Shown here piece after piece: positions 11,241-33,871 of a DNA stretch of 33,871 nucleotides (positions within the stretch are counted from its first letter, which is position 1; each line of letters starts with the position of its first letter). The position numbers and the translations under genes are program-made. A model generated the notes under the pieces. The model was not told where the DNA came from. It ran no database searches and was given only the letters and a program-made list of their open reading frames with translations. This DNA comes from a virus (taxonomy: Duplodnaviria > Caudoviricetes), in IMG/VR virus record IMGVR_UViG_3300014208_000093, positions 1-33,871 of that record. One strand, written 5' to 3'.

Positions 11241-11924
11241 ATGCTTTGGAAGATACCTCAGATTTGGAAAGGGGGTACTTGCATTATAATAGGGGGAGGT
11301 TCTTCATTAACTAAACAATTTGATATTCCTGATACTTTAGTGTCAGAAGTATATTCAGGAAAACAAACTCCTATTGCATATTCTCCGTATATGTCTAGTA
11401 TTCATTCGCAGCATATAATTGCGGTGAATATGGCGTATAAATTAGGTAATTGGATAGATGTCTTGTTTTTTGGAGATGTCGGTTTTGTTGAAAAGACAAA
11501 AAAGGACTTATTCAATTTTAGTGGTCTAAGAATCACTTGCGGGGAAACCAAAGTAGATTACAATGGACGGTTAAAGTTGATAGAAAAAGACAGATCCAAA
11601 AAGCAAGGCATTTCCACTTATCCCACTTCAGTAGCTTGGAATCATAATAGCGGAGGGGCTGCTATTAATTTAGCTTATCATTTCGGGGTTAAGAGAATAA
11701 TATTGTTAGGGTTTGATATGAAATTAGATTCTAACAACAATCAGCATTGGCATAAGTATTATTCAGGAAATCTTAGAACTGTTGGAGCGGCTATGAATAC
11801 TCATTTACGGGGTTTTCCTCAAATAGCAAAAGATTTGGAAGGGAAGGTAGAAGTTTTGAATGCCTGTCCGGATAGTAAGATAGACGTTTTTCCCAAAATG
11901 AACTTTAAGGATATTGTATTATGA
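11241..11924 (+). CDS. DUF115/Maf-like putative glycosyltransferase
   Basis: IIGGGSSL, IAVN.AY, LFFGD, NSGGAAINLAYHFG.KRIILLGFDM and HWH motifs. Confidence 0.7.
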   Translation: MLWKIPQIWKGGTCIIIGGGSSLTKQFDIPDTLVSEVYSGKQTPIAYSPYMSSIHSQHIIAVNMAYKLGNWIDVLFFGDVGFVEKTKKDLFNFSGLRITCGETKVDYNGRLKLIEKDRSKKQGISTYPTSVAWNHNSGGAAINLAYHFGVKRIILLGFDMKLDSNNNQHWHKYYSGNLRTVGAAMNTHLRGFPQIAKDLEGKVEVLNACPDSKIDVFPKMNFKDIVL

Positions 11925-12568
11925 TTATACAAGATACCTGGGATTGGAAAACTCATCAACCAATAGTGGAGTTGATGTTGTCTGAATTTCATCCTGAATT
12001 AATATTAGAATTGGGTATGGGTTTTAATTCTACTCCTTTATTCATTGAATACAATCCAAAAGAATTAATTTGTATAGAAAATGATAAGGATTGGTTAAAG
12101 ACTATGCTTGCTACTTTTAAATTTAAGGAAAATCACAAGGTAATATTTCACGATACTCCTGATGAGTCTAGGGCTTCGATAAATAACCATATAAACAATT
12201 TTAATTATTATGTGGAATTAAGGGATGAAATTGTTTGTAAAGAAAAGTCTATTAAATTATTGTTTGTAGATAATTATGCTTGTTTACGTTTATTAGCTAT
12301 TACTATACTGGGAGATTCTTTTGATATAATAATTCATCATGATAGTCAACCAGGAGGTAGCGTATCATATAGCGAGTATTTTAAGAATTTTAGAGAAACC
12401 TATGATTGTTATTTATTAAAAACTTCTAAAAATTGGACTTCTTGTTTAATTAGTAAACAGTTAGAATATAATCAAAATCAGATATGTGAAAAGTTGGCTT
12501 TAATCATATCTAAATTTTGTTTTGATAATGGATTAGTTCCTGGAGAAATGTATTTAGAAAAACAGTAA
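11921..12568 (+). CDS. class I SAM-dependent methyltransferase-like protein
   Basis: ILELGMG..ST, CIEND..W, LLFVD and IIHHD motifs. ATGA overlap with the previous gene. Confidence 0.7.
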   Translation: MIIQDTWDWKTHQPIVELMLSEFHPELILELGMGFNSTPLFIEYNPKELICIENDKDWLKTMLATFKFKENHKVIFHDTPDESRASINNHINNFNYYVELRDEIVCKEKSIKLLFVDNYACLRLLAITILGDSFDIIIHHDSQPGGSVSYSEYFKNFRETYDCYLLKTSKNWTSCLISKQLEYNQNQICEKLALIISKFCFDNGLVPGEMYLEKQ

Positions 12569-12569
12569 A

Positions 12570-14960
12570 ATGGAAACCTTGCCAAAAATAAGTTTAGTAA
12601 TGTCTTGTTTTTCTAGAGTAGAATTACTAAAACACGGACTTCGTTCAATAATAAAGAATAAACCAGATTTTCCTTTAGAAATAGTAGTGGTTAATGATGG
12701 TTTAGAAAATGATGGAACTAAGGAAGTATGTGATATTTTTGGAATGGTGTTAAATATAAAATATGTTTTTACTGGTCAACGACATGTTTTTGAACTAATA
12801 AAAAAGTGCCCTTCTATTCCAAATAATGTAGCTATTAAACAGGCTACTGGAGATATAGTAATATTGACTTGTCCGGAAATACTCCATCTTAATAATGCTA
12901 TTTCTTTATTAATCCAACCTTTATTAGAAAATAAAAAAATATTATCTATTCCTGAATATATGTTTTTCGATGACAAGGGTACATATACCAAGTTTTTAAA
13001 TAAACAACATGTAGTACCTACCAGATTTTTAAATAGTCATCTGGAGCATGTTAGAATGCCTTTTTTTATGGGGGTTTGGAAATCAGAAATAGAAGCTATT
13101 AGAGGTTACGATGAAGATTTTACAGATGGATATGCTTCGGAAGATAATGATTTTGTAGATCGTTTAGTAAAGAATGGTTGTACCTATTTTAGAACCTCGG
13201 CTCTTGTTGTTCATTTATTTCACGGGTCTCATTGTTCGGGACACGTTCAATTTGATAATCCAGCCTGGGTACGGAATAAGGAGTTATATAATGCTCGCAA
13301 AGAACAGATAGTTAGAAACGTAGGTAAAGAATGGGGAGTTATTCCTGAACAAGTATCTACGGAAATTCCAAAAATAGATATTCCAATCGTTCCAAAAGAA
13401 GAACCAATTTCTTCTCCAGAAGGTATAGAATTACAGGATGATTCTCTTGAAATAATTTTTACAGATATTTACAATAGTGACAAATGGGGATCGAAAGAAA
13501 CTCCATCTGGTACTGGTTCTGAATTGAGGGCTACAAAAAATATCAGAAAAGAAATTCCAAAGTTATTTAAAGAATTAGAAATTAAGCGAGTATTGGATGT
13601 AGGTTGCGGCAATGTTAATTGGATGCGTCATTTATTTTCTAATTTTGAATTTTATTTGGGCATAGACGTAGTGGAGGATTTGATAACGAGGAATAGAAAA
13701 GAATTTGGAACTAAGAATATTCAATTTCAACAAGCTATTATAACGGAAAGATTGTTCAATCCATACGAAGATTTGATGCCTTATGAATTTGATTGTGTAG
13801 TGTTAAATGATGTTTTAGTTCATTTATCATTTAGCGATATTTATATAATTTTAGAGAAGTTAAAGAAAAGCAAGATAAAATATATATTAACCACCCATTT
13901 TTCAGCTTGTGCAAAGAATGAAGATATTTCTTCAGGTAGATGGCGTCCTTTGAATTTAAACAAATTTCCATTTGATTTTCCTAGTCCATTGTCGACAATA
14001 GATAATACGGATGAAATGACTTTGAATAAGACTAGCAGTAGAAAAAAACAAAGGGGGTTAAGCAAGTCTTTAAGTTTGTGGAATTTACAGGAGTTGCCAG
14101 TAGTTAATGGTATTCCTAAAATAGTTCATTTATACTGGGATAAAAGTCCAATGGCATGGTTGCAAACACAAACAGTAGTAACTTTCCATAAACAGAATCC
14201 TGATTGGCAAATAAAAGTACATGTTCCAATACAACCATATGTTGTTCCTAATGGGAAATATGTTCCTGATTATACGGGTAAAGATTATTTTCATATAGTT
14301 AAATCTTTACCTTATGTAGATATAGTAGAAATGGATGTTGTTAAATATGGAATTGATCCTAAATTACATAATATTTTACAATCTGATATTTTTAGATATT
14401 TGATGTTATATGAAGTAGGAGGGGTTTGGTCTGATTTTGATGTTCTTTGGATTCGTCCAATATCGAATATTTACAAAGTAAAAACAAAAGGAATTATACC
14501 TACTTCTGAAATGGGAACCTTTATTTGTAAATGTGAGGCAAAAGATAATTTTCATAGTATTGGTGTGTTAATGACTAAACCAGGGCATCCTTTTTATAAA
14601 ACAATTATAGATAAGTGTTTTGCCATACAGGAATATTATAAAGATCGGGAAAAGTTACACCATCAAAGTTTTGGTACAGATATATTTGATAAATTGTATC
14701 CTACTTTTGAATATATCAGTAAAATATTTCCAGATGTTGTAAAAATGCCTTATAAGACTTTTTATCCTTATTCTATATTTAATTTGGAACTATTATATAA
14801 AGAGGATAGATTAGATTTGATAGAAGATGAAAATGTTTTATGCGTACATTGGTTTAATGGACACCGGTTTAGTAAGAATTATATAAATTCAGAAACAAAT
14901 ATTAATCCGCAATGCACAATGTCTAAAATTATAACATTAATTGAGAAGGGTGAATTATGA
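12570..14960 (+). CDS. multidomain GT2-like glycosyltransferase / SAM methyltransferase / GT32-like glycosyltransferase
   Basis: N-terminal IVVVNDG...GYDEDF..GYASEDNDF. Middle FTDIY....WG...SGTGS...VLDVGCG. C-terminal IPKIVHLYW...SDIFRY..LYEVGGVWSDFD. Confidence 0.88.
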   Translation: METLPKISLVMSCFSRVELLKHGLRSIIKNKPDFPLEIVVVNDGLENDGTKEVCDIFGMVLNIKYVFTGQRHVFELIKKCPSIPNNVAIKQATGDIVILTCPEILHLNNAISLLIQPLLENKKILSIPEYMFFDDKGTYTKFLNKQHVVPTRFLNSHLEHVRMPFFMGVWKSEIEAIRGYDEDFTDGYASEDNDFVDRLVKNGCTYFRTSALVVHLFHGSHCSGHVQFDNPAWVRNKELYNARKEQIVRNVGKEWGVIPEQVSTEIPKIDIPIVPKEEPISSPEGIELQDDSLEIIFTDIYNSDKWGSKETPSGTGSELRATKNIRKEIPKLFKELEIKRVLDVGCGNVNWMRHLFSNFEFYLGIDVVEDLITRNRKEFGTKNIQFQQAIITERLFNPYEDLMPYEFDCVVLNDVLVHLSFSDIYIILEKLKKSKIKYILTTHFSACAKNEDISSGRWRPLNLNKFPFDFPSPLSTIDNTDEMTLNKTSSRKKQRGLSKSLSLWNLQELPVVNGIPKIVHLYWDKSPMAWLQTQTVVTFHKQNPDWQIKVHVPIQPYVVPNGKYVPDYTGKDYFHIVKSLPYVDIVEMDVVKYGIDPKLHNILQSDIFRYLMLYEVGGVWSDFDVLWIRPISNIYKVKTKGIIPTSEMGTFICKCEAKDNFHSIGVLMTKPGHPFYKTIIDKCFAIQEYYKDREKLHHQSFGTDIFDKLYPTFEYISKIFPDVVKMPYKTFYPYSIFNLELLYKEDRLDLIEDENVLCVHWFNGHRFSKNYINSETNINPQCTMSKIITLIEKGEL

Positions 14961-16087
14961 AAATTTTAACCATTACTGGAACACGACCGGAACTCATAAG
15001 ACTTTCGGTAATTCTTGCTAAGTTAGATGCTTTGTTAGGGGAAGATCACGTACATGTGTATACTAACCAAAACTATGATCCTAATCTCAGTACCATTTTT
15101 CTTAGGGATTTGAGAATTAAAAAACCTAAATATACTTTTGGTAAAACCAATGGAATAGGTCAATTTTTGGGTATGGGTTTTACTGAATTTAATATTATTC
15201 TAGATGTAGAGAAACCAGATAAGATTTTGGTGTTAGGAGATACGAATTCAGTATTGTTTGCTATCCTGGCTGCCAAGCGAGGTATTCCGATTTATCATAT
15301 GGAAGCGGGTAATAGATGTTATGATGGAGCCGTACCTGAAGAAACTAATCGGAGAGTAATTGATGCTTGTTCATTATTTAATTTACCCTATACAAAGAAT
15401 TCAAAAGAGAATCTAATCAATGAAGGGTTTTCTAAAAACTTTGTATTTCAAACAGGAAATCCAATTAAAGAAGTTTTACAATATTATGAAAAGGATATAG
15501 CTAATAGTGACATTCTTGTTCGCCTGGGTTTAGCTCCGTACACCATGGATGCTTTTGCTAAGTTTGCTCTATTGTCTTTTCATCGTACAGAAAATGTAGA
15601 TACCAAGTCCGTAGCAAAGAATGTAGTGGAAGCTATAAATCAGATAGCAGAAGAAGGTAAGATGAAAGTAGTATTTCCATTTCATCCTAGAACTAAAGAT
15701 CAATTCGCTAAACATGGTTTATCGTTTTCAGATAGGGTAATGTGCATAGATCCAATAGGATTCTTTGACTTTGTACGACTAGAACAATTTGCCCATGTAG
15801 TGATTACTGATTCAGGAACAGTACCAGAAGAAACGGCTTTGTTTGGTAAACCCTGTATAGTTTTGAGAAATACTACTGAGCGTCAAGAATTGATGGAAAC
15901 TGGTAGTTGGATTCTAGCGGGTACGAATAAGGACGATATTGTACGAGCCTTCCGATCTATTGACGAAATGCGCCAGGTTTGGCCAGTTTTAGATGACTAT
16001 TCTAAGGTTAATGTATCCGATACTGTAATAAGGATTTTAATGGGTCAAAAGTGGTCTATAACGAGAAAAGGGCATGACGAATATTAA
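14957..16087 (+). CDS. non-hydrolysing UDP-N-acetylhexosamine 2-epimerase (WecB family, FnlC/WbjD/Cap5G-like)
   Basis: GTRPELIRLS, QNYD, LVLGDTNS, HMEAGNRC.D..VPEE.NRR, ITDSGTV.EE and TERQE motifs. Confidence 0.9.
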   Translation: MKILTITGTRPELIRLSVILAKLDALLGEDHVHVYTNQNYDPNLSTIFLRDLRIKKPKYTFGKTNGIGQFLGMGFTEFNIILDVEKPDKILVLGDTNSVLFAILAAKRGIPIYHMEAGNRCYDGAVPEETNRRVIDACSLFNLPYTKNSKENLINEGFSKNFVFQTGNPIKEVLQYYEKDIANSDILVRLGLAPYTMDAFAKFALLSFHRTENVDTKSVAKNVVEAINQIAEEGKMKVVFPFHPRTKDQFAKHGLSFSDRVMCIDPIGFFDFVRLEQFAHVVITDSGTVPEETALFGKPCIVLRNTTERQELMETGSWILAGTNKDDIVRAFRSIDEMRQVWPVLDDYSKVNVSDTVIRILMGQKWSITRKGHDEY

Positions 16088-16098
16088 ATCTAATCAAG

Positions 16099-17157
16099 AT
16101 GTTTGAAATAACTGGTGGATACCCAAAACAAGTAGAATATTTCAAGGATTCTACAATTTGCATAACTGGCGGATCGGGCTCATGGGGTCAAGAACTTACT
16201 CGACAATTGTTGGAACCGAAACCCCTGTATCATATTCCTAAGAAAATCATAATCTTTTCTAGGGGCGAAATTTCTCAAGTAGCGATGCAGAGAAAATTCA
16301 ATGATAAACGGATTGAATATGTAATTGGGGATATTAGAGATGCTCAGGCAGTAGATGCAGTGGTAAGTAGAGGAGTTGACTATATATTTCATCTAGCAGC
16401 GTTGAAGCACGTTCCTATTTGTGAAAATCAACCTAATGAAGCTATTAAGACAAATATCATAGGAACCCAAAACATAATCGAAGCGGCTCTCAAATACAAA
16501 GTCAAGAAACTAATTGACGTATCTACCGATAAGGCAGTAGATCCAATTAATGTTTATGGAATGACGAAGGGAGTAGGGGAAAGATTGGTTATACAAGCAA
16601 ATTGTCTTACTAAAGATACTGATTTTCTTTGTATTCGTGGAGGAAATGTACTTGGTACTAATGGTAGCCTGGTTCCTATGTTGATAAATCAAATAAAAAC
16701 CAATAATAGGATTACAATAACCGATGCTGAAATGACCCGATACTTTTTAACTTTGAAAAAAGCTATTGAGTTGTTATTTTTTGCTACCTGTGAAGGCCAG
16801 GGCGGAGAAATTTATGTTATGAATATGCCTAGCTTCCATATAATGGATTTAGCAAATATCTTGATAGAATATTATGGAAACAAAGGAACTCGAATAGATA
16901 CCATTGGAAGTAGAGAAGGAGAAAAGTTACATGAAACTTTAATTTCCCATCATGAAGTTTCTAGAACTAGTTTGGTAAACGCTAATTACCATGTTATCTA
17001 TCCTAAATTGAATACAGGCCGTAACAATTTTCATATTTGGGATCATTTAGACTTTGCTTCTCCTGTAAGTTTGAAAAGCTCTTTTACTTCTCAGGATAAT
17101 TTGAAAGATAAAGATTATTTGGAAGGGTTGTTGAAAGAAGGAGGATTTTTATGCTGA
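16099..17157 (+). CDS. UDP-GlcNAc 4,6-dehydratase (FnlA/WbjB/PseB-like SDR)
   Basis: TGGSGSWG, GDIRD, HLAALKHVP.CE, STDKAVDP.N.YG.TK, GNVLG..GS and GEKLHE motifs. Confidence 0.9.
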   Translation: MFEITGGYPKQVEYFKDSTICITGGSGSWGQELTRQLLEPKPLYHIPKKIIIFSRGEISQVAMQRKFNDKRIEYVIGDIRDAQAVDAVVSRGVDYIFHLAALKHVPICENQPNEAIKTNIIGTQNIIEAALKYKVKKLIDVSTDKAVDPINVYGMTKGVGERLVIQANCLTKDTDFLCIRGGNVLGTNGSLVPMLINQIKTNNRITITDAEMTRYFLTLKKAIELLFFATCEGQGGEIYVMNMPSFHIMDLANILIEYYGNKGTRIDTIGSREGEKLHETLISHHEVSRTSLVNANYHVIYPKLNTGRNNFHIWDHLDFASPVSLKSSFTSQDNLKDKDYLEGLLKEGGFLC

Positions 17158-17930
17158 GCATGGTTATGGCATATTACAATCGTAGGCAATTATTGCTTAA
17201 TACCTTAAAGTCTATTGAACGATCTTTTGTAAAGGATATTGAATTAATAATAGTTGATGATAATAGTAGGGAGGAAGAACGAATTGAAGATTTAGTGGAA
17301 ATTTATCCTTTCATAAAAGTTATTCGGGTTGAGAAAAAGGATAAATGGTATATCAATACCTGTATGCCTATGAATAGGGGTATTGCGGAGGCTAAAGGAG
17401 ATATTATTGTTTTGCAGAATCCTGAGTGCGTTCATGTCCAAGATGTTCTATTATATATTGTTGAAAATCTAACGGATCAAAATTATCTTTCCATTTCTAC
17501 TTATGCTTTTAATGAAGCTAAGAGGGGAGAATTGCCCAATATGTTACTTCATTTTGATAAGTATCCTCAACAACGATTTATGATGGATCTAGGATGGTAT
17601 AATCATCCGGTATATCGGCCAGTGTATTTTAATTTTTGTGCTGCTTTGACCCGTAAGAATATGGATTTGTTAGGAGGGTTTGATGAAAGATACGCCATGG
17701 GATTAGCTAGGGATGATGCAGAATTTGTAGATAGAATTGGTAGGTTGGGTTTACAAAAGATTATTCCTACGGAGGTATCTGTAATCCACCAATGGCATTC
17801 TAAAGTAGAGCATTTTCATGAGGGGGTTTATCCTCATAGAATACGGCAAAATATATCTGTATATAAACATTTTACCAGTAAGGAACAGGATATTTTTAAA
17901 AAGAATAGTTATGTTACCCGAACAATTTAA
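17151..17930 (+). CDS. GT2-family glycosyltransferase
   Basis: YYNR..LL..TL.S, LIIVDDNS, GGFDERYA.G...DD.EF and HQWH motifs. Confidence 0.88.
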   Translation: MLSMVMAYYNRRQLLLNTLKSIERSFVKDIELIIVDDNSREEERIEDLVEIYPFIKVIRVEKKDKWYINTCMPMNRGIAEAKGDIIVLQNPECVHVQDVLLYIVENLTDQNYLSISTYAFNEAKRGELPNMLLHFDKYPQQRFMMDLGWYNHPVYRPVYFNFCAALTRKNMDLLGGFDERYAMGLARDDAEFVDRIGRLGLQKIIPTEVSVIHQWHSKVEHFHEGVYPHRIRQNISVYKHFTSKEQDIFKKNSYVTRTI

Positions 17931-19203
17931 CACGGTTGTTTTAGTCTTGAAAACTGGAGGAGATTTTAATTTTCAAGATGTAGATATACTTTCTTATCAT
18001 TTACATTACCATTATCGGGGAATAAAACCTTTGAGGGTATTTTGTTTATATGATGGAGTAAATGTCGTTTGGGAATTACGAAATTGCACGGTACTTCCTA
18101 TGTTCTATAAAGAATGGAAGGGTTGGTGGAGTAAGATGAATTTGTTCAGTCCTGAAATGGAAATATATCGACCTTTTCTATATTTGGATTTGGATACGGT
18201 GGTGGTTAAGGATATTTCAGACTTGTTTGACAGAAGCAATGAAATAATTACTTTAGAGGATTTCAATATTAGAAATAAATCTGCTTCAGGCATGATATGG
18301 ATACCTGCTAAAAATCCAATAGTATCTGGTATTTGGGAGAGTTGGATAAAATCTTTTAAAAAACATATATTAAAATATCGAGGTGATCAGGATTTTATTC
18401 GTACTTTTATAACAATTAATAATTTTTGGCAATCCTTAACTACGAAAATATGCAGTTTCAAAATGAGAAAAGGAAACAAAGGTTGGTTAATGGAGATTCC
18501 AGATTCGATTGCTGTAGTATGTTTTCATGGACATCCTAGAGTACGAGAAGCCTCAAAATCCGTACCTTGGATAATGGATTATGTTCAGGAAAAATCTAAG
18601 CATCCCAAAGTAACTGTCATTATTCCCTATAAAATAAATCGTGGTTGGTTGATGGAAGCTATCAATAGTGTTCCTGAATGGTCTCAGGTTATTGTTAGCC
18701 AGGGAGAAGGTACTTGGCCTCAAAATTTTAATAAAGCTTTATCCCATACTTTAGGAGATTATGTTAAATTTTTACACGAAGATGATGAATTAACGGAAAA
18801 TAGTCTTGAAGATTCTGTTAAAGCTATTGAAGAACAGGGAGTGGATTTTATTCATGGTAAAGCATTAAGTATATCCGAAAGCGGAGAAGTAATAGAAGCC
18901 TATCAACCTCCACTGGAAGTTACTTATGAGCAGTTGAAAGAAAGTAATCCTTTACATGGCGGTTCTTTATTGTTTAAAAAAGAAATATTTGATAAGATAG
19001 GTGGATTCGATGAAACTTTAAATCATGCAGAAGAGTATGAATTTAATTTAAGATGTATGTATTACGGGTATCGTCTTGGATATTGTGATTCTTTTTTATA
19101 CAAGTATAGAAGGCACTCTGGTCAAAAATCAAATATAGATGTTGTAGAAATGGAAAGATTAGGAAAAGAAATATCAGATGGTTATAAATATAAAGCTTTA
19201 TGA
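17911..19203 (+). CDS. two-domain glycosyltransferase (GT8-like N-terminus, GT2-like C-terminus)
   Basis: WWSKMNLF, LYLDLDTV, GDQDFI and VCFHGHP, then VTVIIP, FLHEDD, GGFDE.L..AEEYEF and YRRH..Q. The ATG at 17911 is preferred over 17818 because it gives a smaller overlap. Confidence 0.85.
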   Translation: MLPEQFNTVVLVLKTGGDFNFQDVDILSYHLHYHYRGIKPLRVFCLYDGVNVVWELRNCTVLPMFYKEWKGWWSKMNLFSPEMEIYRPFLYLDLDTVVVKDISDLFDRSNEIITLEDFNIRNKSASGMIWIPAKNPIVSGIWESWIKSFKKHILKYRGDQDFIRTFITINNFWQSLTTKICSFKMRKGNKGWLMEIPDSIAVVCFHGHPRVREASKSVPWIMDYVQEKSKHPKVTVIIPYKINRGWLMEAINSVPEWSQVIVSQGEGTWPQNFNKALSHTLGDYVKFLHEDDELTENSLEDSVKAIEEQGVDFIHGKALSISESGEVIEAYQPPLEVTYEQLKESNPLHGGSLLFKKEIFDKIGGFDETLNHAEEYEFNLRCMYYGYRLGYCDSFLYKYRRHSGQKSNIDVVEMERLGKEISDGYKYKAL

Positions 19204-19913
19204 TTAAAGATAAATCATATAGTCCTATTTTTGTTACTGGAGTTGAACGGTCTGGTAGTTCTCTCATAGGAAGAATAATCACTATGTGCGGTGGATTTTC
19301 TGGTAAAATAACTCCTATGAGTGAAAATATACGAATTAAAAAATTAGTGGACGATTATTATAAAACTTTTAAAGCAGATACTCGTGGGCAATTTCCTTTA
19401 CCTAATACCAATGAATTATTAATACCTAGAGATTGGAAAGATAAAGTAAATTCCATATTGACTGAAGAAGGATATACGGATTCTAAAGTTTGGATGAGTA
19501 AGGGATCTAGGATGGCTCAGATATGGCCAGTATGGAATTTCGCTTATCCAGATGCTAAATGGATCGTTGTTAGGAGAAGGACTGGAGATGTAATCCAGTC
19601 TTGTTTAAAGACCGGATTTATGGATGCTTTTGGAGATAGAACCATCCAACAGATTATTGGAGTAGATAATGAAAAAGACGGATGGCTTTGGTGGATTCAC
19701 GAACACGAAAAGCTATTTGTTCAGATGATTGAATCGGGGTTAAATGTAAAACAGATTTGGCCTGAAAGAATGTTAAATGGAGATTTTAGGCAAATACAAG
19801 AAATGTTGGACTGGGTAGGATTGCCTTGGAATGAAGGCATTATTACTTTATTAGATGAAACTTTGATTAAAAGTAAAAACAATGGCCGTAAGAGTAACAG
19901 CAACAGAGGTTAA
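19200..19913 (+). CDS. sulfotransferase-family (P-loop-like) protein
   Basis: PIFVTGVERSGSS resembles the 5'-PSB motif. PDAKWIVVRR...DVIQS resembles the 3'-PB motif. Confidence 0.72.
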   Translation: MIKDKSYSPIFVTGVERSGSSLIGRIITMCGGFSGKITPMSENIRIKKLVDDYYKTFKADTRGQFPLPNTNELLIPRDWKDKVNSILTEEGYTDSKVWMSKGSRMAQIWPVWNFAYPDAKWIVVRRRTGDVIQSCLKTGFMDAFGDRTIQQIIGVDNEKDGWLWWIHEHEKLFVQMIESGLNVKQIWPERMLNGDFRQIQEMLDWVGLPWNEGIITLLDETLIKSKNNGRKSNSNRG

Positions 19914-26411: not shown

Positions 26412-28706
26412 ATGGCAGACTTTCAATTAAAAGCATATACAGAATGGGATGACATTCTTTCTTCTTCCTCTCATTGGGAGGTAGAAATCTATCAGGATTT
26501 AGATTTAGGAGGAGAATCATCCGTAACTGTTATGCCATTTATTAGTTCTCCTGATCCTTTGGTATTTCGATTTGGTCCGGCTGGGGATTTAGATACCGTA
26601 ATAAAAGCTACTGAGTGCACGGTAAATATGATCATCCCACAAGGGGAAAATTTTGATTGGTTAATAACAGACTTTAATCCTAGAAAATTTAAAGTAAAGG
26701 TTATACAAGATAGCGTTACTCAGTTTTGGGGATTTATGATAAATGATCAGTTGTTTGACAATCTTGAATATAACCGATCTTTGTCTATTATCTTTAGTGA
26801 TCAATTAAATTTGCTAACTAAGGAAGATTTTTTAGACGGTTCTGTTGGTCCAACTACTCCTGATACTCTTTTGAATCAATTGTGCAGAGGATTAGAAGCA
26901 ACCGGATTACAACTACCAATAAATATAGCTTGTAATATTTTCCACTTAGATATGCAAAGAGGAGCTACCTATACTCCTTTCAATCAGGCTTATTTAAGTC
27001 AAAGTATTTGGTTAGATGATAATTTTAATCCTGGTAAATGTGGAAATGTTATTGAAGAGATATTAAAACCTTTTTGGTGTAGAATATTTCAATCAGAAGG
27101 TGAATGGAGAATATATCGAATACGTGATTTGGAAAAAACTCCGATCTATTGTCAGAAGTTTTCATACAACGGGGCTTTAATTTCTTCTGAAACCTTAACT
27201 CCTCAGTTGTCTACTTCTACTTCCCTGCAAAAGTTTACTCCTTTAATTCAAAGAATACATGGTGGGGAGTTAGAATATTCACCAGATTGGAAATTTAGGG
27301 ATTTAGAAATAGATTATGGTTTGAAGCCTTCCTTAGTTAGTGGTTTGAATGCTGACGTATTTTGGACAGATCCATATACCCATACTGCTTGGACTAATGA
27401 AGGTAAAAAATGGTATCATATAGGATACACTGTAAATAATATTCAAAAAGGATTTTTGAAATGTTCTACAGATGATAGAATAGCTTTAAACATAGGATAT
27501 CAAATATATTCTCCTTTAGCAAATATTTATGCTGTAAATTCTTATGTATTTACGGTTATTTGTGGTAGATCAAATATGCATTGGCCATTAATATCTTATT
27601 GCTATGTGCAATTAGTATTAGTAGTAGGTGGAGTAGATACTTATTGGTATGACGATTCAACAGGCGTGTGGGAGGATGATTCTTTGTTTCATTCTATTGA
27701 CGGTATAGATTTTCCTGCTATTGGAAAGAAAGCAGATATTGCTACTAATTTAGAATCTAGAACAGTAGAAGTAGCAGCCCCTCCTGTTGATGGTCAATTG
27801 CGAATAGTATTTTATGCTCCGTATAGAGGAAGTCCTTTAGCAATCAATACTTATTTTTATATTGGGGAAGTTACTTTTGAAATAGCTAACGAAGATGAAA
27901 ATTTACCTAATGGAGAGGTTTCAAGAGTAAATATAACTAGTACTGGTCAAGATACTTTCTATGTTCCTGATCAGTATAAAATACGAATTAATGGAGGGGT
28001 AGTAACTAGAGAAGGAGCTACTCCAGGAACATTTGAACAAATAACTACAGATAGATATTTTGGATTACTTGCTTTAACCACTAACTTAGTTCCAATAGAT
28101 GATGATTGGGTAGAAATATATGCTACGGATTCAGCTGACGCTATGAAATTAAAGGACTGGTTATTGTATCATTGGCAAAGACATCACGCTACAACTAGTA
28201 AGTCTTATGAAGGATCGTTTAGGGGTAGAATGAAACCTACTAATGTTTTGAAGATTACTGAATTTACAGATACCGAATTTGGAACTTTGTATATTTGGGA
28301 CGATGTGGAATTTCATCCTAGAACAGGTATATGGACTGGAACTTGGTTACATTTGAAAAATAAAAATACTTTAAAGACAGGACAAACTTTTGAATCTATT
28401 TTAAAAGCCTATTCTATCAATACTAATTTAGCAATTTCAGTAGGAGGAGTTTCAGTATCTACAAAAGATGAATATCATTCTAATCCAGAAGCAATAGATG
28501 CTGGAGAACAAACAGTAACCTATCTAACTCCATTTTCAACAGACGATGATATTTTATTAGATCCAGCTATAATGGGTATAACTTCAGATGGGGAAATACT
28601 TTGGGCAGTTCCTTATTGGGATAGTGAAATAGAGGAAACTGCAGGATTTAAGATTAATTTTGCCGTAGCCGTTACCATACATTATACTGCAAGAATAATA
28701 AAATAA
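26412..28706 (+). CDS. tail tip / baseplate-hub-like structural protein
   Basis: 764 aa, beta-rich, immediately after the tape measure gene. CRIFQSEGEW.I motif. No signal peptide. Confidence 0.6.
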   Translation: MADFQLKAYTEWDDILSSSSHWEVEIYQDLDLGGESSVTVMPFISSPDPLVFRFGPAGDLDTVIKATECTVNMIIPQGENFDWLITDFNPRKFKVKVIQDSVTQFWGFMINDQLFDNLEYNRSLSIIFSDQLNLLTKEDFLDGSVGPTTPDTLLNQLCRGLEATGLQLPINIACNIFHLDMQRGATYTPFNQAYLSQSIWLDDNFNPGKCGNVIEEILKPFWCRIFQSEGEWRIYRIRDLEKTPIYCQKFSYNGALISSETLTPQLSTSTSLQKFTPLIQRIHGGELEYSPDWKFRDLEIDYGLKPSLVSGLNADVFWTDPYTHTAWTNEGKKWYHIGYTVNNIQKGFLKCSTDDRIALNIGYQIYSPLANIYAVNSYVFTVICGRSNMHWPLISYCYVQLVLVVGGVDTYWYDDSTGVWEDDSLFHSIDGIDFPAIGKKADIATNLESRTVEVAAPPVDGQLRIVFYAPYRGSPLAINTYFYIGEVTFEIANEDENLPNGEVSRVNITSTGQDTFYVPDQYKIRINGGVVTREGATPGTFEQITTDRYFGLLALTTNLVPIDDDWVEIYATDSADAMKLKDWLLYHWQRHHATTSKSYEGSFRGRMKPTNVLKITEFTDTEFGTLYIWDDVEFHPRTGIWTGTWLHLKNKNTLKTGQTFESILKAYSINTNLAISVGGVSVSTKDEYHSNPEAIDAGEQTVTYLTPFSTDDDILLDPAIMGITSDGEILWAVPYWDSEIEETAGFKINFAVAVTIHYTARIIK

Positions 28707-28764
28707 TCTGTTTCATGTATTTATTCGATAAAGGTTTATAAATTTACGGTATATAAAAGTAGAA

Positions 28765-30321
28765 ATGAAAAGATTGTTGATTTTATTAGCCTTTTTACTT
28801 CCACTTGTTTTACAAGCTCAAACTCCTGTAAGAACTACACGGTTGACGGTAGATACTGTTTTGCTGAAATCCTTATCGGTTATTCCAGTCTCGCCTTCTA
28901 CTGGAATCAAACTGTTTGATTGGATGAATCGGGTAACGGTCAGGGATAGTACTGGGGTAAAGAAAAAGCTGTTGATAGATGTGGATTTAGCTACTTTACG
29001 GGATACTACTGGCGCCTTATATGATTCTGTTGCTTTATATGCTAAAAAAACAACAACCATTTCAACTACGGCTCCCTTAACAGGAGGAGGAGATCTTTCC
29101 ACAAACAGAACCTTTGCTATCCCAAAAGCAACTTCTACGGTTGACGGGTATCTGGCCGCAGTAGACTGGGTGATTTTCAATGCCAAACAGGGAACTTTAG
29201 TAAATGACCAATGGTACACGGCAAAAGATTATGTTGGCAACACCATTAATATCTTGAAGGTTACGAAAGATAATACTCTGATGTTTGGGCTTCCGGTCGA
29301 GATTCAGGCCCTTCATGCCGTTGCCGATGCAGGACTGATTTCCATTATTGATGTACCGATTGTTCGGGCAAATTATGGGGACACGACAGGTGTAAAGATC
29401 AAGGTTGATGGTGTTCCGATTCTCAAAGTCTATTCCCTTGCTGACGGGGCGGGGTCGAGTTACAAGCGAGAGGTAAAGGTAGAAGGTAAACTTTGGGTAC
29501 TGGACACGATTGTCGGAACTTACTCAAGGTTCACTAAACAGATTCAGGCTGATTCGATTAATGCAGTCAGTAAATACCTATTAAACGGGGTGGATATTCG
29601 TAGAACCGGAACCCTTGACACATTGGCCTATAAGGATCAGGATAACAATTTTACAGTAGGGCAAACCGTGACAGACCTGTACGCATCAGATTCGATCACG
29701 GCCAATTCGGTAAACGTAGCGGATACCCTTGTTGCTAATAATTTACGATTCCCTACCTCACCCTCAAATGGCTATTTCTGGCGATCTGATGCAAGGGGTG
29801 TAGGATCGTGGCAAGCTATTACCAATGCCTACAAAGGCACCTGGAATGCAAACACGAACACCCCGACATTGGAAGACGGAACAGGGTCAGCCGGTGACTT
29901 TTACTTCGTTTCGGTTGGCGACACCATCAACCTGGGGTCTGGGAATATCATTTTCTTAACGGGGGGAACTTGTGTTTATAACGGGTCAATCTGGGAAGCA
30001 GTCAACCCCTATCAGTCCGTTGTATCTGTAAACAGTCTGATCGGAAATGTTCAACTGGAACTTGTACCTGTTGGAGATAGCGTACTGACGATGACAGGTG
30101 GTGCGGATTCCGTGAACCTGAACCCTCCGAGGTTCTATCAAAAAGAGCTGACGGCTGATGCCGAAAATGATATACCTGTTGGGTTCCCAATAGGAAGCAA
30201 GACGAAGGTTTTTTACAACGGGACTTTAATCGAACAGGCTCGTTGGTCGGGAGTTGGGACATCTACAATTACATTGGCTTTAGATACTCGAAAATATGAT
30301 GTTGTTACAATCACTAATTAA
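28765..30321 (+). CDS. tail-fibre-like protein with N-terminal Sec signal peptide
   Basis: MKRLLILLAFLLPLVLQA|Q. Fibre motifs TTAPLTGGGDLSTNRT, DGYLAAVDWVIFNAKQ, YKGTWNANTNTPTL and VVSVN...GNV. Confidence 0.8.
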   Translation: MKRLLILLAFLLPLVLQAQTPVRTTRLTVDTVLLKSLSVIPVSPSTGIKLFDWMNRVTVRDSTGVKKKLLIDVDLATLRDTTGALYDSVALYAKKTTTISTTAPLTGGGDLSTNRTFAIPKATSTVDGYLAAVDWVIFNAKQGTLVNDQWYTAKDYVGNTINILKVTKDNTLMFGLPVEIQALHAVADAGLISIIDVPIVRANYGDTTGVKIKVDGVPILKVYSLADGAGSSYKREVKVEGKLWVLDTIVGTYSRFTKQIQADSINAVSKYLLNGVDIRRTGTLDTLAYKDQDNNFTVGQTVTDLYASDSITANSVNVADTLVANNLRFPTSPSNGYFWRSDARGVGSWQAITNAYKGTWNANTNTPTLEDGTGSAGDFYFVSVGDTINLGSGNIIFLTGGTCVYNGSIWEAVNPYQSVVSVNSLIGNVQLELVPVGDSVLTMTGGADSVNLNPPRFYQKELTADAENDIPVGFPIGSKTKVFYNGTLIEQARWSGVGTSTITLALDTRKYDVVTITN

Positions 30322-30332
30322 ATTTTATCACA

Positions 30333-30974
30333 ATGAAAAAGTTACTTGTTATTTCGATTTTGCTTGCTTTCGCTCTAATCAGCTATGGACAAGTTACAAA
30401 TGTCCCTGATGTTCGTACCCCAACACGAGCAAGCGTATTAGGTAAAAATTTACCGGTCGGTTCACACATTTACGTCAGTTCTGACTCCACGAATTGGGAT
30501 GTAAAATCCGCTACACTTGGAACCTATACGGTTACTACCGCACTTGCAGCGGGATTAATCAAACAGTCGGATCGAACTGATTTGAGTCTGGCAACCCGAA
30601 CAAGTACGACAAATATTATCAGGTCCAATTACGGTGACGGGAACCAAGGAGATAGTGTCATACTTGCTGTTGCAACGACTTCACTTGCGGGTCTGGAATC
30701 AGCAGCAGACAAGACAAAACTTGACGGACTATCAACTGGAGCTGGGCAATTATATTCTGAATCCCTTGAATATCCTGATGATTCCACCGCAGGGTCTATT
30801 ATTACAATGGACTATTCCCCGAAAGATACGCTTTGCATAGTTTTGGAATGTAATGGGCAAATACTAACCCGATCCGTGGATTATTTCTGTGCTGACGCAA
30901 TAGCAAAAAAAGAACTACTAATAAAAGACGCAGTATCGAAATACGATAAATACCATTACAGTATTTCAAAATGA
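30333..30974 (+). CDS. small fibre-associated protein with Sec signal peptide
   Basis: MKKLLVISILLAFALISYG|Q. Contains ATTSLAGLESAADKTKLDGL, a common phage fibre motif. Confidence 0.78.
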   Translation: MKKLLVISILLAFALISYGQVTNVPDVRTPTRASVLGKNLPVGSHIYVSSDSTNWDVKSATLGTYTVTTALAAGLIKQSDRTDLSLATRTSTTNIIRSNYGDGNQGDSVILAVATTSLAGLESAADKTKLDGLSTGAGQLYSESLEYPDDSTAGSIITMDYSPKDTLCIVLECNGQILTRSVDYFCADAIAKKELLIKDAVSKYDKYHYSISK

Positions 30975-33871
30975 GAAAACTTCTTATCATCTTATTTCTT
31001 TCCCTGTCAGTAACAGGTTTTTCCCAGAATACACCATCGGCTATACGTAGGGTTGCAAACAGTACAAATACGTTTGAAACTCCGCTTGCCGAAGGGTACG
31101 TATTGTATGATATGGGGTCAAATAAGATGTATAAGATTTTATCAGCAGTAGCCGGAACCTACTCGCTTTCAACCCTGACACGTGGCACTCATTACGTGGA
31201 ATTGGCAACCGTACCGGGCAATAACGAATGGATGCCCGTTTACGATGCTGTTGGGAACCTGTCTAACTTGTTGATGCTTTCGCCTGACAACACAGTCAGG
31301 TTCGCCCATCCGGTAGAATTGACAAGCCTCTTTGCGGTCGGGGATCAGGGGATGACCACGCTGATAAATATTCCGGTATTGAGCAGTCTGTACGGTACGG
31401 TTCATGGCTATCGGTTTCGGATTGACGATCAGGATATTATCAGTATGCAACGCCTGTCAGACGGATCCGGAAGTACAACGACCCCAACGGTTACGATTAG
31501 TGCACGGACAACGGTAACGGATTCGATTGTCGGGGTCAATGAAAGGCTAACGGGAAAGATCCAGGCGGCAAACGGGGCGATTACAGACAGCCTTACGGTT
31601 GTAGAACGCACATACAATGCGACAACGTGGAACGGTTCTTTTAGAGTGCCTACATCAAATGCAGTACGGGATAAGATTGAAACCCTTGCAACCACGCTGA
31701 ACCTTTCGGGGATTCGGGATACACTCGCTTTTCATTCTGATAGTCTGGCAAATGCTTACGATTCAATTACGAAGCACACGGGTTGGTATTATACTTTAAG
31801 GGACAGTGTAATTGCTGAAATGGATTCTACCGTCAAGCATACCGGATGGTTTTACACCCTTCGAGATAGTGTTGGTAACTCTATGGATTCTATTTCTAAG
31901 CATACTGGTTGGTATTATTCATTGAGGGATTCAGTTGCCAATAATATAGATTCTATCAGTAAGCACAGAGGGTGGTATTATAGCCTACGGGATTCAGTGG
32001 CTAATAATATGGATTCGATTACCAAACACTCCGGATGGTACTATTCGCTTAGGGATTCTGTTATAAATACAATGGATTCTGTGGTTAATCATACGGTTAG
32101 GTATTATCAACTACTGGATTCAATAACAAATCACCGTGACACCCTTTGGAACCATTCTGACAGGCTTGTCGCATTGGAACGAGATACCGCAGGGTATTTA
32201 ACGGTTGAAGCAGACCCAAAATTTGTGGCTGATTCCAGTAAGTTTGTAAGACTTGGAGGTAGAACCGGAGGTCAGACCATAGCACAGAAGGTAACTTTTT
32301 CATTTGATTCAACGCTTGTTTTTAATCAGGCTTACAATGCAACGACTTGGAACAATAGTAACGCTATTCCAACAAAGAATGCCTTGAGGGATCAGTTTGT
32401 AACACTTCAACCACTTCTTACCAATCCCGTAACAGGAACCGGAGTATCAGGGTATCTGTCAGAGTTTACCGGAACGAGTGCGATTGATTCAGCATTTATT
32501 TACCATGCGGGGAATGAATTTAGGATTAACACAACATCAGATGCAGGGGCATATCAACTCCAAGTTAATGGATCGGGATATTTTAACGGGAACCTGAACC
32601 TGATTACAGGCAAGGCGTTTATGATTAATGCCGACACTCTTTCAATATCAAATTCTAAGGTGTTTTCAGCCTCGACATTTCGGTCAAGACTTGCAGCAGT
32701 AGGGGATAAAACAGGTACGGGATCGGTAATGTTCGGAACCGTGCCAACGGTAACAGACTCACTACTGCTTCCACTTCGGGCATATTCAGCAACGACCTGG
32801 AACAACTCAAAAAGGGCGGTATCAGAGGATGGATTCAGGGACGTTATTGTAGGATTACAAGGTGCTTCAACCAATGATGTTTGGACAACATCAACAGATT
32901 ATATCGGTAATTCCATAAATGCTTGGAAGATCAGTAAAGACAACTTATTCACGTTAGGAGCAAAGTTTGACCTTGGGAGTTTCAATCAGGTGGCAGATGT
33001 TGGGATGGTAACGCTATCAAATACGCCTGTTGTTTCAAGCCTGTACGGAACCGCACACGGATATAGATTTCAGGTAGATGACACGGATTTGCTTTCATTT
33101 CAAAGACTATCAGATGGAGCAGGGGGAACCCATAGCCCGACCATGACAATAATGGCCAAAACGACCGTAGCGGATAGTCTGTTTGCAACAAACCTTTTGG
33201 GAACGAACACCGGGGATCAGGATTTGTCTGGTATTCGGGATACCTTAGTTTTTCATTCGGATTCGCTTACGAATATTTATAGCCGGACAACGGACGTTGC
33301 ACATGGAGGAACTGGGAAAGCCTCAATAGCATCAAATTCATACATGAAGGGAGCCGGAACCGGGGCTGTAGTAGAAAGAACCTATGCTGAGGTGAAAACC
33401 GATTTATCATTAAATAATGTTGATAATACTTCAGATGCCAATAAGCCAGTAAGTACCGCCCAACAAACAGCATTAAACCTAAAATCAAATATTGCATCTC
33501 CGACATTTACCGGATTAGTTACTGCCCCATCTACACGAGAAGGTCAATATATTCAATCGGTAGATGAATCAGTAATAGTATGTGATGGGGATTCAAGGAC
33601 TGTCGGTTATACCGGAGGAACTGCTTACCCCTATTCAGACCATTTAGGGTTAGATACGACTTACACCATTTATAATACCGCAAACGGAGGTGCTACGCTA
33701 ACCTACTATTCCGGAGTGGATTGGAAAGCTGATGTAGCCTATGCAAACGTGGACAAATACATCAATAATGTTGGGGTTCGCAATATTGTTGTGATTTGGG
33801 CAGGTATCAATGATATGTATGTTAACAATGTAAGCGAGAACGTGGCCTACCGGGGAATGAAGGCCTACTGT
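30971..33871 (+). CDS. large tail fibre/spike with Sec signal peptide, heptad-repeat stalk and SGNH/GDSL esterase domain (3'-truncated)
   Basis: Translated by hand: open for 967 codons to the window end, with an ATGA overlap with the previous gene. MRKLLIILFLSLSVTGFS|Q. Fibre motifs GTNTGDQDLSG, VAHGGTG and LNNVDNTSDANKPVSTAQQTALNLK..IASPTFTG. SGNH blocks CDGDSRT, NTANGG and WAGIND. Absent from the ORF track because it has no stop. Confidence 0.88.
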   Translation, partial: MRKLLIILFLSLSVTGFSQNTPSAIRRVANSTNTFETPLAEGYVLYDMGSNKMYKILSAVAGTYSLSTLTRGTHYVELATVPGNNEWMPVYDAVGNLSNLLMLSPDNTVRFAHPVELTSLFAVGDQGMTTLINIPVLSSLYGTVHGYRFRIDDQDIISMQRLSDGSGSTTTPTVTISARTTVTDSIVGVNERLTGKIQAANGAITDSLTVVERTYNATTWNGSFRVPTSNAVRDKIETLATTLNLSGIRDTLAFHSDSLANAYDSITKHTGWYYTLRDSVIAEMDSTVKHTGWFYTLRDSVGNSMDSISKHTGWYYSLRDSVANNIDSISKHRGWYYSLRDSVANNMDSITKHSGWYYSLRDSVINTMDSVVNHTVRYYQLLDSITNHRDTLWNHSDRLVALERDTAGYLTVEADPKFVADSSKFVRLGGRTGGQTIAQKVTFSFDSTLVFNQAYNATTWNNSNAIPTKNALRDQFVTLQPLLTNPVTGTGVSGYLSEFTGTSAIDSAFIYHAGNEFRINTTSDAGAYQLQVNGSGYFNGNLNLITGKAFMINADTLSISNSKVFSASTFRSRLAAVGDKTGTGSVMFGTVPTVTDSLLLPLRAYSATTWNNSKRAVSEDGFRDVIVGLQGASTNDVWTTSTDYIGNSINAWKISKDNLFTLGAKFDLGSFNQVADVGMVTLSNTPVVSSLYGTAHGYRFQVDDTDLLSFQRLSDGAGGTHSPTMTIMAKTTVADSLFATNLLGTNTGDQDLSGIRDTLVFHSDSLTNIYSRTTDVAHGGTGKASIASNSYMKGAGTGAVVERTYAEVKTDLSLNNVDNTSDANKPVSTAQQTALNLKSNIASPTFTGLVTAPSTREGQYIQSVDESVIVCDGDSRTVGYTGGTAYPYSDHLGLDTTYTIYNTANGGATLTYYSGVDWKADVAYANVDKYINNVGVRNIVVIWAGINDMYVNNVSENVAYRGMKAYC
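31760..32137 (+). repeat. 63-bp (21-aa) coding tandem repeat, 5 copies plus 1 degenerate copy
   Basis: Unit DSI(T/S)KH(T/R/S)GW(Y/F)Y(T/S)LRDSVxxx(M/I), with heavy synonymous divergence between copies. Confidence 0.9.

Follow-up and report, generated by a model that had tools for sequence, protein, structure and literature searches.

We analysed a 33,871-nucleotide stretch of a Caudoviricetes virus (IMG/VR record IMGVR_UViG_3300014208_000093, here called the window), in which three consecutive open reading frames (ORFs), gA, gB and gC, lie directly downstream of the tail hub gene and are predicted to encode fibre-like proteins with secretion leaders. Our reading, to which we assign a probability of about 0.6, is that they encode accessory fibres that are exported, glycosylated by the host and docked onto virions at lysis. 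From the sequences we infer, with good support, that gA-gC are exported and O-glycosylated by the host, because their leaders are conserved with glutamine (Gln) at +1, a glycosylation motif shows third-residue specificity and a heptad register, and motif enrichment is nearly restricted to leader-bearing homologues. Virion attachment is likely by analogy with cultured Cellulophaga phages. A first-pass annotation of this DNA had already noted three consecutive leader-bearing ORFs at the fibre position, and this was borne out (coordinates in Table 1). The three genes share one strand with the hub, with spacings of 58, 11 and -4 bases from the hub onward.

Leaders were judged by eye and by a charge and hydrophobicity rule of our own. 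Those of gA, gB and gC are basic-hydrophobic, contain no cysteine and have a small residue in last place with Gln directly after it, with predicted cleavage after A18, G19 and S18, respectively; no lipobox was found in any of the three. This fits the pattern of Sec export and signal peptidase I (SPI) cleavage in which Gln follows the leader, described as the Bacteroidetes Q-rule (PMC10653852). The gA leader is retained in all six other full-length family members, and Gln20 of gB is invariant in 5/5 members of its family. Sorting-domain models for type IX secretion systems (T9SS) gave no match in 31 proteins; the C-terminus of gC is absent from the record, but complete homologues also lack the domain. 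A cytoplasmic isoform from a second start was considered and finds little support, as no in-frame ATG, GTG or TTG stands directly after the cleavage sites (the nearest are TTG codons at 27 and 33 in gA and at 45 in gC).

Fibre motifs had been claimed for all three genes. They were recovered in gA, which matches phrog_13892 (minor tail protein, E = 4e-19), and in gC, which matches phrog_35419 (E = 7e-10), but not in gB, whose only match is a weak one to phrog_6907, of unknown function (E = 5e-4). Cultured phages have minor tail and fibre genes that likewise match the fibre repeat motif of gC. The end of gC matches PF13472 weakly (E = 0.007), and its homologues P0131 and P0146 (62-63% identity over residues 841-967) score above the PF13472 cut-off. 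No S74 chaperone was matched in gA or gB, nor in gC as far as the record contains it.

The motif D-(S/T)-(A/I/L/V/M/T) corresponds to the D-S/T-hydrophobic motif by which Bacteroidota O-glycosylation is defined (PMC12871550); that system modifies non-cytoplasmic proteins only and occupies the common motifs almost completely. Relative to 2000 shuffles, gA carries 13 motifs where 3.1 are expected and gC 26 where 6.2 are expected (p = 0.0005 for each), while the 4 motifs of gB (1.7 in shuffles, p = 0.07) are not significant alone. The earlier hand counts for these genes and for the tape measure (1), terL (1), capsid (2) and hub (6, against 3.4 expected, not significant) were all reproduced by program; the enrichment they suggested survived shuffling for gA and gC but not for gB. 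The gB family nevertheless keeps D-S-T at 51 invariant and a motif at 165 in 5/5 members. Of the 30 other ORFs of the window that were counted, a single glycosyltransferase was enriched (3 vs 0.8, p = 0.04) and no structural gene was, and five control motifs (E-S/T-h, N-S/T-h, reversed, spaced, N-X-S/T) showed no enrichment. The residue following D-S/T is a permitted one at 43/47 sites in gA-gC, compared with 27/62 in 25 other plus-strand genes (Fisher p = 1e-7).

Much of the signal in gC comes from its tandem repeat, where 15 motifs (1.2 expected) lie at positions 250-390, all of them at 5 modulo 7. This register suggests a coiled coil with the third residue of each motif in the core and the Ser/Thr beside it. 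Outside the repeat gC is still enriched (11 vs 4.9, p = 0.007). Most motif-rich homologues, though not every one, show similar seven-residue spacing (22/22 motifs in P0192, 8/31 in gene C of the phage L220, 1/13 in P0081). No description of a heptad-register motif array on a viral stalk was found in the available text of the O-glycosylation and Q-rule papers cited above.

We classed 268 homologues by leader and motif content. The gA matches contributed 119 (120 were listed out of 185), and the gC matches another 149 not already counted, from the best 150 out of 8190. Short fibre motifs are all that most of them share with gA or gC. A leader followed by Gln was present in 37, of which 12 are motif-enriched (observed-to-expected ratio, O/E, 1.70), compared with 4 enriched among 207 leaderless proteins (O/E 0.74), so the predicted excess over signal-less homologues was found. 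None of four homologues with a leader but without Gln is enriched, and 2 of the 20 that lack an initial Met are; the leaderless class makes up 207 of the 248 that start with Met. Three of the four enriched leaderless homologues begin inside the family repeat and are therefore probably fragments. Enrichment thus almost requires a leader (12/41 leader homologues vs 4/207 leaderless), yet most leader homologues are not enriched. The proposed co-occurrence of leader and motif in relatives accordingly holds in one direction, with enrichment nearly confined to leader proteins and 25/37 leader-plus-Gln proteins not enriched. In aligned motif columns, the S/T and the third residue exchange while the motif itself is kept. 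Motifs mostly precede the tip domain in P0131 (17 vs 0) and in L220 gene C (38 vs 1); in a 914-residue protein of the relative G016 they do not.

Motif enrichment did not prove special to fibres: exported proteins of this phage clade show it generally. Membrane-anchored spanin-like proteins beside the lysis genes of eight relatives hold 34 motifs against 4.7 expected, in a set picked from a list displaying motif counts, with none identified in G008, G012 or G016. It is possible that the host glycosylates spanins and that spanin motifs can serve as a host marker. One of these relatives, G028 (L090, L215, L216), has a motif-rich spanin-like gene of Bacteroidota type although its bin is labelled Hyphomicrobiales, and is probably mis-binned.

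The evidence on virions comes from four Cellulophaga phages with mass spectrometry (MS) notes in GenBank (phi18:1 whole; phi18:3, phi10:1 and phi19:1 partial). Leaders are present in 11/47 of the proteins flagged MS/MS (three in phi18:3, four in phi10:1, four in phi19:1 and none in phi18:1), with Gln after the leader in 10 of the 11. Like the window cassette, the genes form runs of 3-4 leader genes before the lysis genes, behind small leaderless genes, and in two long-tailed phages they lie between the hub and lysis genes; one of the small leaderless genes ahead of a run, phi10:1 gp090, is itself MS-flagged. Unlike gA-gC, they are motif-depleted and show no sequence homology to the window genes, and the record notes do not mention leaders. 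The same leader genes occur in phi19:3, annotated by similarity only and left out of the count. The earlier proposal that exported fibres attach to virions at lysis gains outside support from the MS flags in three Cellulophaga phages, and for the window phage it is likely by analogy. Within the Cellulophaga podo- and siphoviruses (L217:2892-8584, L223:36848-42392, L224:39017-45154), leader genes have near-identical N-termini and swapped C-terminal domains.

Under the mechanism that we propose, gA-gB-gC would be a mobile fibre cassette whose products leave the cytoplasm through Sec. Signal peptidase I would cleave the leaders and pyroglutamate would form at the Gln, a step that the leader sequences make very probable, and the host system would add O-glycans in the periplasm, which the motif pattern makes only slightly less so. 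Soluble storage in the periplasm until lysis would follow, as we infer from the lack of a lipobox and of a T9SS tail. A putatively trimeric stalk, with glycans along one face, would form a stiff, soluble, protease-resistant brush with an esterase tip. Once the inner membrane is breached at lysis, the fibres would dock onto the cytoplasm-built particle, at the leaderless hub tip or at a small adaptor, and act as an accessory appendage that binds receptors or modifies capsule; we judge binding at one of these two sites reasonably probable.

Structural comparisons supply leads for docking. The AlphaFold monomer of gA has a mean pLDDT of 36.9 and is confident only at residues about 455-518 (block means 66-82). 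Atlas structure matches pair this C-terminal domain with small phage proteins (TM 0.83-0.86, feature score 0.87), and a DUF4183-like assignment is a lead only; PDB sequence searches returned no useful match. The hub C-terminal domain, which may be the phage's own tip or docking site, has Atlas leads to Gp53-like_C and H-lectin at 0.81-0.82 (below 0.9, leads only), and it is kept at the C-terminus of most hub homologues, with another tip in P0282. Kinship between the C-terminal parts of gA and gB rests on visual likeness, as their profile comparison reached 52% probability over 24 columns.

The distribution of gA-gB-gC among relatives indicates an accessory cassette carried by phages. Samples of 401 Bacteroidia and 401 Bacteroidales genomes yielded no full-length homologue of gA or gB, and 16 and 2 short motif matches. 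An alignment scan of IMG/VR gave 80 loci, mostly matching one widespread fibre motif, and scans with gA or the hub alone gave no relatives. In the closest relative, G001 (capsid 87%), a leader gene directly behind the hub has 9 motifs in the 154 residues before the contig ends. G001 also carries, on the minus strand (L193:8127-8990), a 287-residue ORF without a recognised leader that holds 11 motifs against 1.0 expected. L220, whose tail genes look unrelated to those of the window phage, has a gA homologue (44%) followed by gB- and gC-like genes, with observed and expected motifs of 14/4.0, 4/0.9 and 39/10.0, then a leader-bearing LamG gene without motifs and holin-like and lysozyme genes. Among the seven capsid relatives that are complete, large leader genes are present in G002, G008 and G016 and absent from G012, G018, G019 and G022.

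Leader-bearing fibre-like genes also stand upstream of the portal gene in L006 (1448-2416), L009 (2364-3215), L023 (1452-2225), L051 and L020, often behind a leaderless gene of 115-125 residues and beside lysis genes. Such portal-upstream genes could possibly encode head-associated appendages.

The host is likely a member of Bacteroidota in the wide sense. Of sixteen capsid matches in genome contigs, 11 lie in metagenome bins (42-66% identity) and five are distant ones in Brevibacillus; 5/11 bin matches, including five of the top six, are labelled Bacteroidota or Balneolales, with the proviso that binning of phage contigs is unreliable. The motif-rich spanin-like proteins of the eight relatives point to the same kind of host.

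A number of observations weigh against virion docking of glycosylated fibres. For gA-gC themselves, presence on a particle and attached sugar are predictions, as is the host. The leader proteins of the Cellulophaga phages are not homologous to them in sequence: among the gA and gC homologue matches listed, and in the top host counts, no record from Cellulophaga appears. Their MS flags come from GenBank notes, and vesicle contamination of the preparations is possible. These 11 proteins carry 12 motifs against 33.7 expected, a depletion that fits passage through the periplasm with glycosylation avoided. Given this depletion and the 25 unenriched leader-plus-Gln homologues, export cannot in general be for the sake of glycosylation, and the motif-poor, MS-flagged proteins indicate that export and heavy glycosylation are separable; the suggestion that fibres are routed through Sec in order to be glycosylated keeps its export and its inferred glycosylation but loses its generality. 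The adaptor is drawn from gene order alone, and the hub tip showed no significant similarity to the small genes that lie upstream in L220 and L100 (E = 0.49 and 0.75). Four of the seven complete relatives do without leader fibres, and in G008, G016, L006, L009 and L023 leader fibre genes lie upstream of the portal, away from the tail genes and mostly, by eye, beside lysis genes, so the view of these proteins as the phage's obligate fibres had to be given up in favour of accessory genes. P0236 is a true leaderless yet motif-rich homologue. As to host, six of the 11 bin matches lack a Bacteroidota or Balneolales label. Shine-Dalgarno sites are unusual for Bacteroidia, and similar sites precede 9/28 window genes and none of gA, gB and gC, a pattern that could stem from a deep-branching host or from mixed ancestry.

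Part of this evidence would suit fibres that are exported and glycosylated yet never enter the virion, and that, once lysis frees them, work as unattached esterase or adhesin fibres, or on vesicles or debris, stripping capsule or serving as decoys for progeny. Cassettes of this accessory kind are often found next to lysis genes and not tail genes; the tips of homologues resemble enzymes or lectins (SGNH, Kelch, LamG); behind the hub, G002 and G016 carry fibre-like genes (by eye) that lack leaders; and no homologous adaptor came out of the hub-tip comparisons. A free enzyme would, however, have no need of phage fibre stalk motifs, and analogous leader proteins are virion-flagged in three cultured phages, in two of them directly behind hub and small genes, which leads us to regard free fibres, and equally the stripping or decoy function, as unlikely. 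Rather less probable again are genes for lysogenic conversion or superinfection exclusion, with fibres on or in the envelope of the infected or lysogenic cell, much as Bdellovibrio cells bear MAT fibres. Proteins of the cell envelope typically have Sec leaders and host glycosylation motifs, cellular fibre-like proteins with signal peptides are described (PMC10769870), and base composition shifts at the cassette as in an acquired module (GC content rises from 0.33-0.38 to 0.42-0.46 and skew drops). Against this stand leaders without a lipobox, no matched T9SS tail, no full-length gA or gB homologue in the bacterial genomes sampled, and genes that track the hub on one strand with tight spacing and no terminator-like site found upstream of gA.

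The lowest weight goes to uncleaved leaders, as anchors or vestiges, on fibres that fold in the cytoplasm as usual and whose motifs are a by-product of the coiled-coil repeat. That leaders were called by eye and by our own rule, that one repeat supplies 15 of the 26 motifs in gC, and that P0236 is motif-rich without a leader would all agree with it. Conservation of Gln at +1 across divergent leaders argues the other way, as do enrichment outside the gC repeat and in the non-repetitive gA, third-residue specificity (43/47) and the O/E of 0.74 in leaderless homologues, and we consider this explanation very improbable. Accessory fibres that join the virion at lysis thus remain our preferred reading.

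Conventional phage fibres have no leaders and are assembled in the cytoplasm. The products of gA-gC resemble conventional tail fibres and tailspikes in their place after tape measure and hub, their phrog_13892 and phrog_35419 motifs, the SGNH tip and modular swapping, and differ in that all three have leaders. With Bacteroidota O-glycosylation (PMC12871550) and the Q-rule (PMC10653852) they share the motif and a Sec leader followed by Gln, but that system is described for host proteins, and the word 'phage' is absent from the main text of PMC12871550. The MAT fibres of Bdellovibrio bacteriovorus (PMC10769870) come close, as trimeric adhesins that look like phage fibres, have signal peptides and can exchange their tips; they are chromosomal cell-surface proteins rather than phage-encoded, share a 130-residue N-terminal domain (beta) and often have S74 chaperones, and 'glycosyl' is absent from the main text. 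By contrast gA-gC are phage late-region genes without an S74 match. Glycans on a tailed-phage particle are known from mycobacteriophage Che8 (Freeman et al. 2023, cited in PMC11256854), and the window also has a glycosyltransferase cluster; in Che8-type phages, phage-encoded glycosyltransferases act on capsid proteins, in contrast to the host transfer onto exported fibres suggested here. Signal peptides are mentioned in passing for lyase-domain proteins of two Cellulophaga phages (PMC8776804) and counted in two Bacteroides phages (PMC5723332). We found no account of exported or host-glycosylated tailed-phage fibres in literature coverage that mostly leaves out subscription journals.

The accepted view is that the particles of tailed phages are assembled entirely in the cytoplasm. 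If our reading is right, appendages maturing in the periplasm and added at lysis would give them a second compartment of assembly, and virions would gain host-made glycans. Leader-bearing phage genes routinely annotated as morons or secreted enzymes could then be structural. We tentatively extend this, as a rather doubtful generalisation, to two-compartment morphogenesis in many Bacteroidota phages, with swappable appendage cassettes stocked in the periplasm and joined at lysis, and here a stalk with a heptad-spaced, host-written glycan brush; under that reading each virion's coat, imprinted by the last host, would alter stability, camouflage and the next cells bound. Direct tests are available, as cultured Cellulophaga phages have the leader part of the pattern and the cassette would be an extreme glycosylation substrate; leader, Gln and motif together would offer a host marker for uncultured phages.

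Table 1. Positions of the cassette, its parts, neighbouring tail genes and comparison genes
Feature	Position	Strand	Basis or content
gA, 518-residue fibre-like protein	28765..30321	+	predicted Sec/SPI leader, 13 motifs, phrog_13892, phrog_31460
gA predicted leader, 18 residues, then Gln19	28765..28818	+	sequence; family conservation
gA C-terminal small beta domain, residues 452-518, family-conserved, candidate docking domain	30118..30321	+	AlphaFold, Atlas
gB, 213 residues, candidate linker or branch protein	30333..30974	+	4 motifs; predicted leader 30333-30389, Gln20
gC, >967 residues	30971..33871 (continues, >33871)	+	26 motifs; predicted leader 30971-31024, Gln19; stalk, fibre motif, SGNH start
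gC 21-residue tandem repeat, residues 243-395, putative coiled-coil stalk	31697..32155	+	15 motifs; heptad register
gC phage tail-fibre repeat motif, residues about 806-852	33386..33526	+	phrog_35419, phrog_24919
gC start of SGNH/GDSL hydrolase domain, candidate receptor-modifying esterase	33587..33871	+	PF13472 weak, homologues
Tape measure gene	22815..26411		gene order
Leaderless tail hub protein	26412..28706	+	place after tape measure; C-terminal domain 28419-28706
Cellulophaga leader virion proteins	phi18:3 gp085-087; phi10:1 gp091-094; phi19:1 gp101-104		KC821620; KC821618; KC821607
Motif-rich spanin-like genes	G002:63159, G003:50900, G018:40079, G019:63968, G020:31351, G022:75778, G023:11464, G028:49126

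A long-tailed phage's late region makes up the window: terminase, portal and capsid genes come first, then a cluster of glycosyltransferases, and after it the neck, tail tube, tape measure and hub genes and gA-gB-gC, and the record ends inside gC. Promoter scans of the window did no better than chance level. Strong Shine-Dalgarno-like sites (5256, 7655, 9604, 17151 and 21561) lie upstream of the starts of several head and tail genes. Contigs of two groundwater metagenome runs match 26412-33204 without letter differences, and the window may have come from either run. Towards the close of gC (33272-33871) the run contigs fragment into short pieces, as a repeat or a variable tip region would cause, and another contig on record, of 76 kb, has the same gA.

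Between the capsid and neck genes (11241-19913) lie eight leaderless sugar-modification genes, with GT2s, a GT32-like gene, a methyltransferase, a UDP-GlcNAc 2-epimerase, a 4,6-dehydratase and a sulfotransferase. The first gene and the sulfotransferase are present in 9/9 relatives, and the middles vary. We rejected this cluster as the enzyme source for the fibres, as its genes occur in 9/9 relatives with the head region, five of which have no leader fibres. It is instead a candidate for cytoplasmic virion glycosylation, separate from the exported cassette.

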